A stretch of DNA of 63,057 bases, counting the filler, from Licmophora abbreviata (lineage: Eukaryota): the NCBI GenBank assembly GCA_900291995.1. It is 11 parts of 11 records of this genome, joined end to end, with 100 filler letters (N's around TTAATTAATTAA, not from the genome) between each part and the next. Parts side by side here need not be neighbours in the genome. Positions count along the whole stretch, not along the records: positions 23,372 to 29,276 come from OLMU01004054.1; 10 more parts are not named here. One strand, given 5' to 3'. Shown one piece after another: positions 23,372 through 29,376 of the stretch (position 1 is the first letter of the stretch; the number at the start of each line of letters is the position of its first letter). The notes beneath the pieces were generated by a model that searched no databases, was not told where the DNA came from, and was given only the letters and a program-made list of their open reading frames with translations. Made by a program: the position numbers and the translations under genes.

Positions 23372-23743
23372 TCGTACCGTGGTACGCAGAGGTAGCGTTC
23401 GCATTCGCCGAATGCTTTGTTGGGCGCGGAAGCAGAACCCGTTTTAAATTTTGGCGTCTGTCCCTCTGTTCAAAGACGTCGAAGTTCCCGAAGTTGAAGC
23501 AGTCCAGCAGCTGCTACCAAATATGCATATATTCGCGTATGAATATAATACTCTCATTACGACTTCTTCAGGTCTGAAAAGTCAATACAAGAATGGCATC
23601 CGACGGAACAAGCAAGGTCTGGAGGAAGGGCAACAAAGGAATGCTTTCCTGTTTTCGTTTGCCCTCACAACAACGACGAGACTGGCACTTGTTTGACTCT
23701 CCATACTACGAAGAACGACAAAAGACCAAAAGAAAGAATCAGG

Positions 23744-26700
23744 ATGACGGCAGAGTCGAGGATTCGTCGCAGCTGGGCTGCTGCCCTGGTCAGTCTCTGC
23801 GTAATGGCTGCTCCTCTCGAGGCTTTCGCCCCGCAAAGATCCAGTCGTCGGAGAACTCCCTTCTCGGTCGGCACCAAGTCATCCTTGTTCATGTCCAGCA
23901 GCAACGAAGACAAGAAGCGTGTCGTTGTGATCGGAAACGGCATGGTGGGGCAGAAGTTCATGGAGAACCTCCTCAAGCACGACGTGGACAAGAAGTGCTC
24001 CATCTCTACTTTCTGTGAAGAACCCCGCGCTGCCTACAACCGTGTGAAACTCACTTCCTACTTTGAGACGAGGGATCCTTCGGATCTTTCTATGACGTCT
24101 GGATTCGATGAGTCTGGCAAGACTGCATGGTACGACGAGAACAACGTCGAGATCCTCCTCAACGACAAAGCTGTCTCCATCGATACTGACGCCAAGACGG
24201 TCACTGGCAAGTCAGGCAAGACCATCCCCTACGACGTTGCCGTCATGGCGACTGGATCATTCCCGTTTGTCCCGCCCATTCCAGGCAAGCAACGACCTGG
24301 TGTCTTTGTCTACCGCACCATCGAGGACCTCGAGGCCATGTTGGCGTACGCCAAGGAACACAACGTCAAGAGTGCCGCCGTCATCGGTGGTGGTCTCTTG
24401 GGTCTCGAAGCCGCCAAAGCCGTCAAGGATATGGGCGTGACGTCCCATATTATCGAGTTTGCTCCTATTCTCATGTGCCGTCAGATTGATGAAGGCGGAC
24501 ACAACGCACTTGTGGGCAAGATTGAAGAAATGGGCCTCCATGTCCACTGCAACGCGCGCACCGAGTCCTTCGTCGGCAGCGATGGCACGACCGATGCCGA
24601 ATCCATGGCGCCCGTCTCAGCTCTTCGTTTCAGCAACGAAGACTGGGATGATCTTCCAGTCGAGATGGTTGTTGTGAGTTGCGGTATCAAGCCTCGTGAT
24701 GAACTCGCCAGAGAGGCCGACATTGAAATTGGTGAACGTGGTGGAATTGTCGTGGATGAGCAGCTCCGCACATCGGCCAAGGACGTCTATGCCATTGGCG
24801 AGATTGCTCTCTACAACAACTTCATCTATGGTCTCATTGCCCCTGGATATGACATGGCGGACGTTACGGCCAAGTGTGTTGCTACTGACTTTGGTGTCGA
24901 TCTCGATCTTCCGGAGACTCCCGCCTTTACGGGCGCGGATCTCAGCACCAAGTTGAAGCTTCTCGGTTGTGACGTCGCATCGTTTGGAGTGAACCAGCCC
25001 AAGCCTGACGATACCGATGTCTCCGACCTCGTCTGGAATGACCCCGTCAGCGGCGTCTACCGCAAGCTCATCTTTAACAAGGCCGGGACCAAACTGCGAG
25101 GAGGAATTCTGGTCGGTGATGCGTCCGACTACGCCACGCTCCACAAGCTCGCCGTCGGCACGACGGAGGAGCTCACTGAGAGCCCAGCCATGCTGCTGGC
25201 TCCTCTGTCAGCTCGTGGCGGTGCCCCAGTTGAGGAGGAAGTCTCATCAGACCCTACCGCCCAGATTTGCTCGTGCAATGACGTGACTCGGGGCACCATC
25301 GCGGCGGCTGTCCAAGAGCTTGGTGTTGAGGGAGCCACGCTTCCGGAACTGAAGAAGTGCACTCAAGCTGGAACTGGATGTGGCGGATGTGAACCTCAGG
25401 TCAAGCAGATTCTGGCCCAGGAACTGGAGAATCTTGGAGGAAAACTCTCCAACAACTTGTGTGAGCACTTTGACTACTCGCGTCCGGAACTCATGGCGCT
25501 CATCCGAACCGACCCTGATCTCTCTTCGGTTGACTCGTTCGAGAAGATTCTTGCCAAACACGGTCACGGAGATGGCTGTGAGATTTGCAAACCAACCGTC
25601 GGGTCGATTCTCGCGTCTCTGGTCAACGGAGTCATCCTTGATGACAGTCGTGACGCGCTCCAAGACACCAATGATCGTGCCCTTGCCAATATGCAGCGCG
25701 GTGGCTCGTACTCGGTTGTGCCTAGGGTGCCAGGAGGTGAGATCTTGCCTGAGCAGCTTATTGCTCTCGGAGAAACCGCTAAGAAGTACAACCTGTACAG
25801 CAAAGTTACCGGAGCTCAGCGTATCGATCTCTTTGGTGCCGCCAAGCACGAGCTGCCTGACATCTGGGAAGATCTTGGAAAGGCTGGACTGGAATCTGGC
25901 CATGCATACGGAAAGGCTCTTCGTACAGTCAAGTCCTGCGTCGGGTCGACTTGGTGCCGTTACGGAGTTCAGGACTCTGTGTCGTTTGCTATTCGCATCG
26001 AGAACCGCTACAAGGGTGTCCGGTCGCCGCATAAGATGAAGAGCGCAGTTTCGGGCTGTGTCCGTGAGTGTGCCGAAGCGCAAGGAAAGGATTTCGGTCT
26101 CATTGCAACGGAAGGGGGGTATAATCTGGTAAGTTCACCCAATTGTGATCTGCGCGTGCTGTCAGATAGCTGTTTGACAAGTCGTCTAATTCTATGTTTC
26201 TTCAAAATTCGGTTCATTCCAGTACGTTGGCGGAAACGGAGGAGTCAATCCCGTGCATGCTGAGCTTCTTGCCGTTGACATTGACGAGGATACTGCCATC
26301 AAGTACATGGATCGATACATAATGTATTACATCCTTACGGCCGACAGACTTGAGCGTACTGCCCCTTGGCAACGCAAGCTGCCTTCTGGGAAGAACGGTG
26401 GCGGTCCGATCGAGCACTTGAAGGAAGTCATTATTGAGGACTCCTTGGGCATTTGCGATGAGCTTGATCGTCGCATGGAACATCTCGTCAACACCTACCA
26501 TGACGAGTGGGCGGAGGTAGTGAACACTCCCGAACTGCGTAACAAGTTCAAGCAGTTTGTCAACACGGACGACAACATTGAGAAGGAGAATATGATTGAG
26601 TTTGTCGACATGCGCGGACAGAACCGTCCTGCCGACTGGCCCAAGGATGGTGAGCATCAGACGAACTGGCAGGCTCCTGAGAACGACATTTTTTCCAAGT

Positions 26701-27254
26701 CTGAAAAGTCGTGGGTCGCTGTTGGAAAGACGTCAGACTTTCCTGTCAATGCGGGAGCGACCATTCTCTACGGAGACTCGCAGCTTGCGGTTTTCAATAA
26801 TGCCAACAAGAATGAATGGTATTGTACGCAAAACATGTGCCCGCACAAACAGGCGTTTGTCCTGTCTCAAGGTATTACAGGCGACGAAGCTGGCCAGCCC
26901 AAGGTGGCTTGTCCACTCCACAAGAAGACGTTCAACCTCCAGGATGGCGAGCTTATGGGCGAGGGCGACCTTCGTATTCTGACCTTCCCAGTCAAAGTCG
27001 AGGGCGAAGATGTTCTCGTAGAGCTCCCGGCCGTTCCTGAGCTTGATGCCATCCTGGGAACGAACGGGCTGCGGGTCATGAAGTCAGACTGTATCGACAT
27101 TACCGGTGATGCCATCAAAGTTCCTGTAAAGAAGAATGGATTCGGGGACATGCTATCCGCCGGGAACACTCTGATTACGGAGAACCTTCGGACAACGTCT
27201 ACAACAGCCTTGCGGGCCAAGGGGGGCAACGAGACTGCCGTCGATGAAGAGTAG
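23744..27254 (+). CDS. nirB: NAD(P)H-dependent nitrite reductase, NirB fused to a Rieske NirD domain, plastid-targeted; intron 26129-26222
   Basis: LEA-FAP targeting motif; FAD motif VIGNGMVG; NAD motif GGGLLG; BFD-type CSCN..CGGC; siroheme/FeS KSCVGSTWCRYG and SGCVREC; spliced NLYVGGNGG; Rieske CPHK..CPLH. Confidence 0.95.
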
Positions 27255-27526
27255 AAGGCTAGTTCCCGTACCACAGGTCGATGCTTAGATTTTGAATTAT
27301 ATAGAACTACAAGGCATTCTTGACAATTCTGCAACTTCCATCGTACCAGTACCAGGTACACGCTAATTCTAGCCTACAGTAGCCTCCCATACTGTAGGAT
27401 AGTCAGCTCTACCATAAGCTGGCTGTACCTGTAAGCAAACTCGCCGCGGAATTACCTTCTATCGATGGTGATGCAAACGTGATATTTGCACTAGTAAAAT
27501 ATTTAGTTCATACTGCAACCGAATTT

Positions 27527-27592
27527 CCAAAGTCTCTCATCGTGTCGACGGGTATTCTTCGTCCCATTCATGCACGAGTCATTCGCCTTTGG
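27527..27592 (-). promoter_or_regulatory. Eukaryotic SECIS element (form 2) in the arsS 3' UTR
   Basis: Minus strand CCAAAG gcga AUGAC UCGUG ca UG AA UGGG acgaagaaua CCCG u CG a CACGA UGAG aga CUUUGG. Helix I is CCAAAG/CUUUGG, the quartet is UGAC/UGAG, helix II is UCGUG/CACGA, followed by an apical AA and a mini-stem. Confidence 0.85.
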
Positions 27593-27671
27593 CCCACGAA
27601 AGCAGCCTTAGCTGAACTGTATCATCGATACTTCTCTCTCCAACTTATGTCTCCCACCGCACAGTGCGCAA

Positions 27672-29132
27672 CTATGCCGTGGTCCCTTGTCAGCTCGATC
27701 CCATGCCAGCCGTACATCCAAAGCAATGATTGTCATTTCGTATATTATAATCTTGCAGTTCCGTGAGCGACTCGATATCAAAGACAGTCACACCACCCTC
27801 GTGAATCTCGTCGACGCCAATCGCATAGCCGAGCTGCTGGTTGAAGTCACAATCGAAAATCTAATGGGAACGCAAGGAATGAAGAGCGTGAGCGAACGGG
27901 CGAGGATACGATGGCGTCACTGCATCCTTACATTCTCTTCCCATACTACTATCCATGATATAGTGAAACTTGTTACTTACTGTCCCGTCGTATCGTACGC
28001 TGACGGTATCGCGGCACATGAGACTCTGTGCAGTGTCGGTATTGAAATTTCGAACCAACAAGTCCATGTATTCCTTGAGTTCATCCCGGCGATGCAGAAA
28101 GTCCGCGAACCGCTTGACGGGCATGTTGGTCATGGTAAATAATGAGTTAAACAATATTCCGAAATTATCGTCCAGTACCTCATGGTATTTTGTCTCGAGC
28201 GATGCTTGGGGAGGAGGCAAGAAGGCACCGAGTGGGTTGTACACGAGATCAAGCTTCAAATTCTTGTCAATGCCATATCCAGCGTCATTCAGAGCAATCA
28301 AGGCAGCAATGGAGCGATCAAAGACCCCATTGCCACGCTGTTGGTCGACGTTTTCTTCTGAGTAGCATGGCAACGACGCAACAATGTGCACCCGGTGTTC
28401 CTTGAGAAAGTCCACCAGATCATGCTGCGACGGCTCTTGCAAGACAGTCAGATTGCAGCGGTCAATTATATCCAGGTCGGGGCGGAGTTGCCGTGCCATT
28501 CGAACTAGGAATCGAAAGTGTTCGTGTAGCTCCGGAGCACCCCCCGTGATATCCAACGTCGTGATGGAAGGTGTGTGTTTCAAGAGCTCAAGACAGCGCG
28601 CCGCGGTTTCGGCAGTCATGTGTTCGGTTCGCAGTGGACTGCTTTCGACGTGACAATGTCCACAAGCCTGATTGCAGTACAGTCCAATGTTGATCTGCAA
28701 GACAGTGGGCGTCCGTCGGTGCAGCACTCCTTTGGTTTCGGGCAATTTCTGTGAGAGAAAGGTGCTGAAGTCAGGCACCCCCAACTGATCCAGCGCGCGC
28801 CGCCGGTTGGTTCGTTCTTCTTTGCTCATCTCACTCTGACCCATTGTCTGTAATCTACGAGCCGTGTCCTGAAAGTTTTCGTCTATCTTGAGTTCCTCCA
28901 TCGTCTGGTCAAGGAGGGACGTCCCAAACAAGTCTTTACGGCGCCATTTATTGGTGAGTTTGATCTGGTCAATTTCGACGGGAGTGTTGTAGTCGGGCAA
29001 ATCCTCTCTTGCCACGTCGCTCAGCCTCCAGGATTTCAAGTTCTGACTTTTGGAGTAGTGGAGAAAGGCCTCGGACGCACCGAAGGACGCCAAGAGGCAC
29101 ACTATCCGCTCCGGGGCACCGAGCTTCCACAT
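27672..29132 (-). CDS. arsS: Radical SAM protein ArsS (arsenosugar biosynthesis/DUF3641 family), predicted selenoprotein (Sec = TGA at 27692-27690); intron 27861-27980
   Basis: CNQACGHCH (CxxxCxxC), DITGGAPE, DRCNLTVL, ASLPCY, LVYNP..FLPPPQ, TNMPVKRF. Exon 2 reads IFDCDFNQQL...HCFGCTAGMGSS-U-QGTTA*. SEA-F plastid motif; SECIS downstream. Confidence 0.92.
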
Positions 29133-29276: not shown

Positions 29277-29376
29277 NNNNNNNNNNNNNNNNNNNNNNNN
29301 NNNNNNNNNNNNNNNNNNNNTTAATTAATTAANNNNNNNNNNNNNNNNNNNNNNNNNNNNNNNNNNNNNNNNNNNN
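29277..29376. other. Assembly linker/gap
   Basis: N44-TTAATTAATTAA-N44. Confidence 0.98.

Follow-up and report, generated by a model that had tools for sequence, protein, structure and literature searches.

An ArsS gene of the diatom Licmophora abbreviata with a probable selenocysteine codon, a SECIS-type element and a hairpin next to the UGA

We discuss here a gene that lies on the minus strand of a 63-kb stretch of DNA from Licmophora abbreviata, within the part of it that comes from record OLMU01004054.1; the whole of the 63-kb stretch analysed is what we call the window. From its sequence we identify the locus as a two-exon diatom gene encoding ArsS, a radical S-adenosylmethionine (SAM) protein. 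Three features near the end of the gene are our main concern: an in-frame TGA, apparently a stop codon, that almost certainly encodes selenocysteine (Sec), an element of selenocysteine insertion sequence (SECIS) type in the untranslated 3' region (3'UTR), as well as a hairpin directly after the UGA.

Exon 1 (27981..29132, minus strand) has 384 codons from its ATG, and carries a presequence-like N-terminus, an extension that is conserved in eukaryotic homologues, the radical-SAM core and the first part of DUF3641. The core includes CNQACGHC (28653..28676, minus strand), the CX3CX2C site for the radical-SAM [4Fe-4S] cluster, and its three cysteines (C153, C157 and C160) are invariant across a 46-sequence alignment, A1. 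It is followed by a phase 0 intron of 120 nt, GTAAGT...TTAG (27861..27980, minus strand), and by the coding part of exon 2 (27672..27860, minus strand) with the rest of DUF3641, HCFGCTAGMGSS, the Sec codon, QGTTA and a TAG at 27674-27672. Translation of exon 2 gives IFDCDFNQQL...NHCFGCTAGMGSS-TGA-CAA GGG ACC ACG GCA-TAG, and the product joined from the exon coordinates by script is an ArsS/DUF3641 radical-SAM protein of 446 amino acids. If the intron is retained the frame closes at an in-frame TAG at its end, and among relatives there are many gene models in the databases that read on into an intron at the same site, after DGK.

The family assignment is based on NCBIfam TIGR04167, an equivalog named 'arsenosugar biosynthesis radical SAM (seleno)protein ArsS' with 303 profile positions and a curated cut-off of 300 bits. 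Exon 1 alone is above the cut-off, with 341 bits over profile positions 2-246, and exon 2 adds 52 bits over positions 248-302. As the profile resumes at 248 after 246, removal of the intron restores it exactly, and as the exon 2 match goes on to 302 of 303 the family profile extends beyond the TGA. In Pfam the matches are to PF04055 (Radical_SAM) and PF12345 (DUF3641). The splice junction is free of gaps against all five homologues tested, which have 71-77% identity, and of the named relatives the closest are from diatoms (Nitzschia, Cylindrotheca, Seminavis, Epithemia and Attheya). The C-terminus has the family's CxGCTAGxGSS(C/U) motif and short tail, in the form HCFGCTAGMGSS-U-QGTTA. An earlier note on this DNA had proposed the intron, the exon 2 sequence up to and past the TGA and the ArsS/DUF3641 identity, and the gene model given here agrees with it on all three.

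The TGA (27690..27692, minus strand) is codon 441 of the 446 and falls in a Cys/Sec column, with a conserved tail after it. We fetched 80 related metagenome loci, in which a motif of the CxGCTAGxGSS type is present in 68 and absent from 12. The codon after the motif is TGA in 33 of the 68, TGC in 27 and TGT in 8, and every one of the 33 TGA loci has an open frame for another 5-8 codons (QGTTA, QGATA, QGVTA, TGATA and similar) before it closes with TAA or TAG. The tail QGTTA of the window gene is identical to that of Cys-form diatom proteins (...GSSCQGTTA). Thus the position is Cys or Sec in each of the 68 loci and the residues after the TGA are conserved, which is what the Sec-ArsS reading of the earlier note led one to look for. 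With regard to the terminators themselves, TGA is the true terminator in none of the 33 Sec loci as against 9 of the 35 Cys loci, which may be a sign that a second UGA, five codons past the Sec codon, is avoided.

Database proteins give the same picture from their ends. The first protein search found 120 homologues, of which 62 end exactly at ...GSS, as the earlier note expected of gene callers that truncate at the UGA, while 7 continue as GSSC-QG(T/A/S)T... and 51 are without the motif, these being mostly gene models that read into the intron. A second search, with a GC-rich Sec locus as query, found 117 proteins, of which 60 stop at the motif and 47 go on as C-QG... Named records were judged by these protein ends rather than by their stop codons, and on that basis Sec forms are probable in Cylindrotheca closterium, Seminavis robusta, Epithemia clementina, Attheya, the haptophyte Haptolina and the pelagophyte Chrysophaeum. 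Cys forms are found in Cylindrotheca fusiformis, Nitzschia inconspicua and Mayamaea.

Three observations on this column stand by themselves. Within Cylindrotheca, the C. closterium protein (P0053) ends at GSS and is probably a Sec form, whereas that of C. fusiformis (P0054) has GSSCQGATA, a contrast that suggests a recent Sec/Cys exchange. There is an ArsS homologue (P0222) on a chromosome-scale scaffold of the pearl oyster Pinctada imbricata (contig of about 115 Mb), and as its predicted protein also ends exactly at ...GSS it may represent a Sec-type ArsS gene in an animal, or foreign DNA within the assembly. At L059:1151-1171 the Cys codon is followed by TAG where all relatives have Gln (CAA or CAG), and then by GGG GCA ACC GCG TGA; this has the look of an organism in which TAG codes for Gln and TGA is the stop.

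The SECIS-type element is of form 2 and is at 27525..27594 (minus strand), the hairpin lying about 100 nt past the TGA and the core 110 nt downstream of the UGA. Helix I is formed by CCAAAG (27592-27587) and CUUUGG (27532-27527), and helix II by UCGUG (27577-27573) and CACGA (27544-27540). The 5' core is AUGA (27582-27579) and the 3' core UGAG (27539-27536); an unpaired AA (27568-27567) comes 10 nt past the AUGA, and there is an apical mini-stem of UGGG (27566-27563) and CCCG (27552-27549), all on the minus strand. Every form-2 feature listed in the earlier note is thus present.

In orthologues we scored candidates by a simple pattern of our own, made up of AUGA, a GA downstream of it, and helices II and I, and a score of at least 10 was reached in 24 of the 33 TGA loci and in 0 of the 35 Cys loci. 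Diatom-like loci have a recurring GAAUGACU...AA...GAUGA element 100-220 nt past the TGA, and there are GC-rich versions of it in other lineages. One locus, L009, ends in a run of A 242 nt past the TGA with the SECIS-type element included, and for that reason it looks like a polyadenylated transcript.

A covariance model was made from these elements. The starting alignment, A2, had 15 of them, but MAFFT misplaced the 3' core in L018, L019, L003, L045 and L024, so those five were dropped and the model, R1, was built from the remaining 10 orthologous 3'UTR elements, none of which is from the window. In this seed alignment 77.6% of the cells of helices I and II are paired, compared with 59.7% after shuffling (a level reached in 0 of 500 shuffles) and 37-66% when the alignment is slid, and 11 of the 15 pairs change on both sides. 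Searched over both strands of the 63-kb window, R1 has its best match at 27594-27525 with 27.5 bits (E 8.3e-5), the next being 13.9 bits (E 0.27). Over the window and the 80 loci together there are 18 matches at E<=1, of which 17 fall where the 3'UTR element is expected, in TGA loci or in the window, and one is elsewhere in L026; at that threshold neither the 35 Cys loci nor the 12 loci lacking the motif have any. The earlier note had also suggested looking for conservation of TGA together with a SECIS in orthologues, and the two do go together.

The hairpin next to the UGA is at 27654..27682 (minus strand) and comprises CCACGGCAUAGU, the loop UGCGC and ACUGUGCGGUGG, with 11 bp and one G.G mismatch. 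It starts 7 nt past the UGA, so that its 5' arm (CCACGGCAUAGU) is made up of the last codons and the stop codon, and its 3' arm (ACUGUGCGGUGG) is in the 3'UTR. Its minimum free energy (MFE) is -17.2 kcal/mol (z -2.92), and 1 of 200 shuffled sequences is as stable. In 30 dereplicated Sec loci the 60 nt past the codon have a mean z of -2.32, with 15 of the 30 below -2 and the window at -3.24, as against a mean of -0.26 and none below -2 in 26 Cys loci (Mann-Whitney p 2.7e-4). A cruder test for a contiguous stem was positive at p<=0.05 in 12 of 30 Sec loci and 2 of 26 Cys loci.

In MFE folds of 160 nt, the number of Sec loci (out of 30) in which a base is paired is 21-29 for each of positions +10 to +16. 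Two of the pairs, both at wobble positions, covary: that at +14 is A-U in 10 loci, G-C in 10, C-G in 5 and U-A in 1, and that at +17 is A-U in 7, G-C in 8, C-G in 5 and U-A in 3. In alignment A5, of 13 loci that were chosen for showing the local hairpin, 90.6% of cells are paired compared with 72.8% after shuffling and 30-58% when slid, and in 9 of the 11 pairs both partners change.

Our interpretation is that the locus is a nuclear gene of a diatom, coding for a Sec-containing ArsS, which would adenosylate dimethylarsenite in arsenosugar synthesis, and that the two RNA structures aid insertion of the Sec; we put the probability of this at roughly 85%. The comparative evidence makes a eukaryotic Sec-ArsS a well supported reading, with 33 loci having TGA and 35 TGC or TGT at the one position, a conserved tail, and a SECIS-type element in Sec loci only, and here we are in agreement with the earlier note. 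For the enzyme activity we draw on the report that ArsS adenosylates dimethylarsenite to 5'-deoxy-5'-dimethylarsinoyl-adenosine (PMC13598754, bioRxiv 10.1101/2024.02.01.577332), and by family membership the diatom ArsS would do the same.

How the Sec is inserted, and the parts played by the hairpin and by the Sec itself, we infer to be as follows. The 120-nt intron would be spliced out to give an mRNA for a 446-residue precursor, and a ribosome on it would reach the UGA at codon 441, where the 3'UTR SECIS would have recruited the eukaryotic Sec-insertion factors. With the UGA in the A site, the stem 7 nt past it would sit at the mRNA entry and would probably favour Sec over termination. The mRNA entry channel is the usual place of recoding stimulators, going by the spacing of frameshift signals and of the selenocysteine redefinition element (SRE). 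Once the Sec had been inserted the ribosome would melt the stem during addition of QGTTA, and stop at the UAG. In the enzyme the CNQACGHC cluster would, by homology, cleave SAM, and the 5'-deoxyadenosyl radical would attack the As(III) of dimethylarsenite. The C-terminal Sec, in its Cys-rich HCxGCTAGxGSSU context, most likely binds the arsenic substrate or takes part in a neighbouring redox or cluster step; a selenolate at Sec441, on the flexible C-terminal end of the Cys-rich motif, would suit As(III) binding.

There are several points that weigh against this interpretation, most of them concerning the SECIS. The Rfam SECIS models have no match at E<=10 to the element of the window, searched in 601 nt and in 91 nt, and none in 20 orthologous TGA loci or in two orthologous elements searched alone. 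The fold of the SECIS region is no better than that of shuffled sequences (z +0.38), helix II in the window is short at 5 contiguous pairs, and the 3' core UGAG deviates at its last base from the published KGAW consensus. R1 recovers the site in 16 of the 33 TGA loci, 12 of these being seeds or near-duplicates of seeds, and its matches outside the window, the seeds and seed duplicates are weak (L018, L003, L024 and L027, E 0.1-0.7). Pattern candidates are absent in 4 of the 33 TGA loci (L007, L013, L017 and L079), although L007 has just 106 nt past the TGA. A tRNA scan of the window found 0 genes. In the case of the hairpin, the rows of A5 were selected as described, the loci are mutually related, and the Cys loci are mostly from other lineages, so that the contrasts between Sec and Cys loci are partly phylogenetic.

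With regard to Rfam, the earlier note had named failure in SECIS covariance models as grounds for giving up the proposal. Formally that is the outcome with the Rfam models, but because they also miss every orthologous element tried we do not count their failure as a refutation. We treat them as insensitive for these sequences, a judgement made with no established SECIS as a positive control. As a separate matter, L013 and L017 are related Sec loci (tail QGATA) that have the proximal hairpin and no AUGA-type candidate within about 300 nt, and their SECIS may be further downstream or have another core.

The alternative that survives best accepts a true Sec-ArsS gene and takes the hairpin to be irrelevant to recoding, with the SECIS alone directing Sec; the hairpin would then be an element for mRNA stability, 3'-end formation or localisation, or a leftover. 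We would give this a little less than an even chance. It fits with human SelS, in which the proximal stem-loop is reported to have no active role and its deletion raised Sec incorporation (PMC6844570), and with the 9-11 of 30 Sec loci in which the 3' arm is 60-150 nt off or there is no predicted partner, and the confounding of the Sec/Cys contrast by lineage also leaves room for it. However compensatory changes at wobble positions have kept the stem in lineages whose GC content ranges from 0.36 to 0.72, and the spacing between its 5' edge and the UGA is constant, the edge being at +10 in most loci. Further, the closest eukaryote-like Cys loci (L015, L029, L030 and L053) are without the stem, with z from -0.12 to +1.56.

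The opposite position, that there is a two-part recoding signal of a covarying hairpin and a distal SECIS kept across diatoms and GC-rich algae, is put forward tentatively, at odds somewhat short of even. On this reading the hairpin would have been kept because the Sec codon is only five codons before the true stop. The same proposal includes that, given a Sec-containing ArsM, both known committed steps to arsenosugars would be selenium dependent.

Much less can be said for the TGA being an ordinary stop, with the enzyme ending at ...GSS and the downstream conservation and the 3'UTR element serving some other purpose. The lack of an Rfam match is in its favour, as is the fact that gene callers end the protein there, but it has to contend with 33 of 33 loci that are open past the TGA with the same tail as the Cys forms, with a family profile that extends past the TGA, and with an AUGA..AA..UGA element of kink-turn type that is confined to TGA loci. 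The prokaryotic family is moreover a recognised selenoprotein family with U at the same position (PMC9312934, PMC13188914), and we regard an ordinary stop as very improbable.

We think it similarly hard to believe that the UGA is read through as Cys or Trp by a near-cognate or suppressor tRNA. The homologous position is indeed Cys in about half of the loci, but in orthologues it is with TGA that the SECIS-type element is found, and TGA is not a general sense codon here, as it is a stop elsewhere in the window, where there are stop-to-stop open reading frames (ORFs) of 800-900 codons without TGA. Diatoms are also documented users of Sec, with 16-44 selenoprotein genes (PMC2375036, PMC7539508). 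A sequencing or assembly error, or a decaying pseudogene, might be thought of in view of the runs of N around TTAATTAATTAA (29277-29376) about 145 nt upstream of the start codon, but with the same TGA in 33 independent loci, and an ORF that apart from it is intact and has 71-77% identity to homologues along the full length, this is the least credible of all.

Turning to the other end of the protein, residues 1-27 (29052-29132, minus strand) comprise a hydrophobic MWKLGAPERIVCLLASFGASEAFLHYS followed by ...SEAF, and the consensus of the 46 sequences likewise has AF about 20 residues in. The arrangement is similar to the motif in signal peptides for plastid targeting in diatoms, and the enzyme may be plastid-targeted. 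The extension outside TIGR04167 (28725-29000, minus strand, residues about 45-136) has the pattern DLPDY...KWRRKDLFG...MSKEER..RRRALD.LGVP.F and is common to the diatom homologues and the GC-rich locus L031. A search of solved structures gave distant radical-SAM cores alone (YydG, E about 5e-4), with no ArsS structure in the copy of the Protein Data Bank searched.

The other large ORFs of the window belong to ordinary eukaryotic genes, for kinesin, exocyst Sec5, NAT10, an RRM protein, Serinc and a NirB-type nitrite reductase, and a methyltransferase that could be the ArsM partner was not found among its 27 large ORFs. The last of these genes, whose NirB-type product is an NAD(P)H nitrite reductase that has a Rieske/NirD domain at its C-terminus, is at 23549-27254 (plus strand) in two overlapping frames (23549-26263 and 26190-27254). 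It is convergent with the ArsS gene, and as the two stop codons are 417 nt apart the 3'UTRs of both genes share that space. At 29277-29376, upstream of the ArsS gene, the two runs of N and the TTAATTAATTAA linker between them are the filler between joined parts, and a simple repeat of GTTTT type comes after them; with the runs of N only about 145 nt from the ATG, the ArsS promoter and 5' untranslated region are incomplete.

The description of this gene as 'hidden' in the earlier note overstates its novelty. Algal members of the ArsS family, in Coccomyxa, Tribonema, Klebsormidium, Chrysophaeum and Seminavis, have the name 'Fe-S oxidoreductase' in NCBI and UniRef, and an 'Fe-S oxidoreductase' (FeSoxR) selenoprotein is listed for Aureococcus (PMC5917014) and in 'The algal selenoproteomes' (PMC7539508). 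Given this use of the name, the FeSoxR of the surveys is probably the same family as diatom ArsS, and the protein family has probably been catalogued already under the generic name. No word beginning 'arsen' occurs in the main text of PMC7539508, and our literature search, which did not reach the supplementary tables of the algal surveys, found no eukaryotic radical-SAM or ArsS selenoprotein. What may be new is the functional naming as ArsS, by which ArsM and ArsS would both be selenoenzymes, and the conserved hairpin next to the UGA.

The consequences are of several kinds. Public gene models, such as the NCBI models of Cylindrotheca closterium, Seminavis robusta and Epithemia, lose six residues that include a probable key selenocysteine, and the name ArsS gives a biochemical role to what the surveys seem to list merely as an 'Fe-S oxidoreductase'. 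Thalassiosira is reported to have 16 selenoproteins, including a SAM-dependent methyltransferase (PMC2375036), and a Sec-containing methyltransferase family of Thalassiosira and Ostreococcus has been equated with arsM (PMC2398784). Taken with a Sec-ArsS this suggests that diatoms need selenium for methylating arsenic as well as for forming arsenosugars. The link between selenium and arsenic is a deduction, and if true the marine supply of selenium would be coupled to arsenic detoxification in such phytoplankton. The hairpin is in addition a clean candidate for study of eukaryotic recoding of a UGA just before the real stop.

In comparing the gene with known systems some care is needed over the FeSoxR of the surveys, as prokaryote tables of the Gladyshev group use 'Fe-S oxidoreductase' for GlpC and have a separate row for 'Radical SAM domain protein'. 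Prokaryotic ArsS (TIGR04167/DUF3641) is listed as a predicted selenoprotein, 'Radical SAM domain protein, GxxU' (PMC9312934, PMC13188914). It shares with the diatom protein the domain order, the CX3CX2C site and the HCxGCTAGxGSS(U/C)-x-G tail of about 5 residues, with Sec at the same position. A pattern scan of species genomes gave at least 119 loci, and among the matches listed 47 remain once a true ArsS C-terminus with TGA after it is required, in Nitrospirota, Gemella, Parvimonas, Dehalococcoidia, Lachnospiraceae and others; all 47 of these listed genes have U-x-G and a short tail.

The prokaryotic genes have a hairpin of bacterial type that starts close to the stop codon or at it, as in UAG-CAGGC-GGUC-GCCUGC, and in the 47 genes among the matches listed the stem starts at about +15/+16, at the stop codon, with small G-rich loops of GGU type, like a bacterial SECIS. 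We considered whether the algal hairpin could be a retained bacterial SECIS and rejected this, because the algal stem begins earlier, from +10, with the coding tail as one arm and loops that vary in size and sequence. The diatom gene differs also in having an intron, about 136 N-terminal residues that lie outside the profile as an extension, and a distal 3'UTR SECIS, as well as a different proximal hairpin in which the 5' arm is the last four codons.

With the eukaryotic type II SECIS, for which the published consensus has a UGAN/KGAW core and an unpaired AA (SECISearch3 description, PMC3753652), the distal element has in common the AUGA core, the 3' UGA, the AA at 10 nt, helices I and II, the apical mini-stem and the site in the 3'UTR. 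It differs in ending its 3' core with G (with C in 5 of the 10 orthologues of the seed) rather than with A or U, in its short helix II, and in having no Rfam match, as is the case for the orthologues.

The hairpin, by analogy, resembles proximal recoding elements of the SelN/SelS type, known structures next to a UGA being the SelN SRE (PMC3541580) and the SelS proximal stem-loop or SPUR region (PMC6844570). There is no sequence relation to these, the protein family and the algal lineages are different, the SelS stem-loop is not stimulatory, and a recoding role of the algal hairpin is a proposal. What they have in common is a conserved stem-loop directly 3' of the Sec codon, and since the Sec is near the C-terminus, as it is in SelS, the structure is partly or wholly in the 3'UTR (PMC3541580, PMC6844570).

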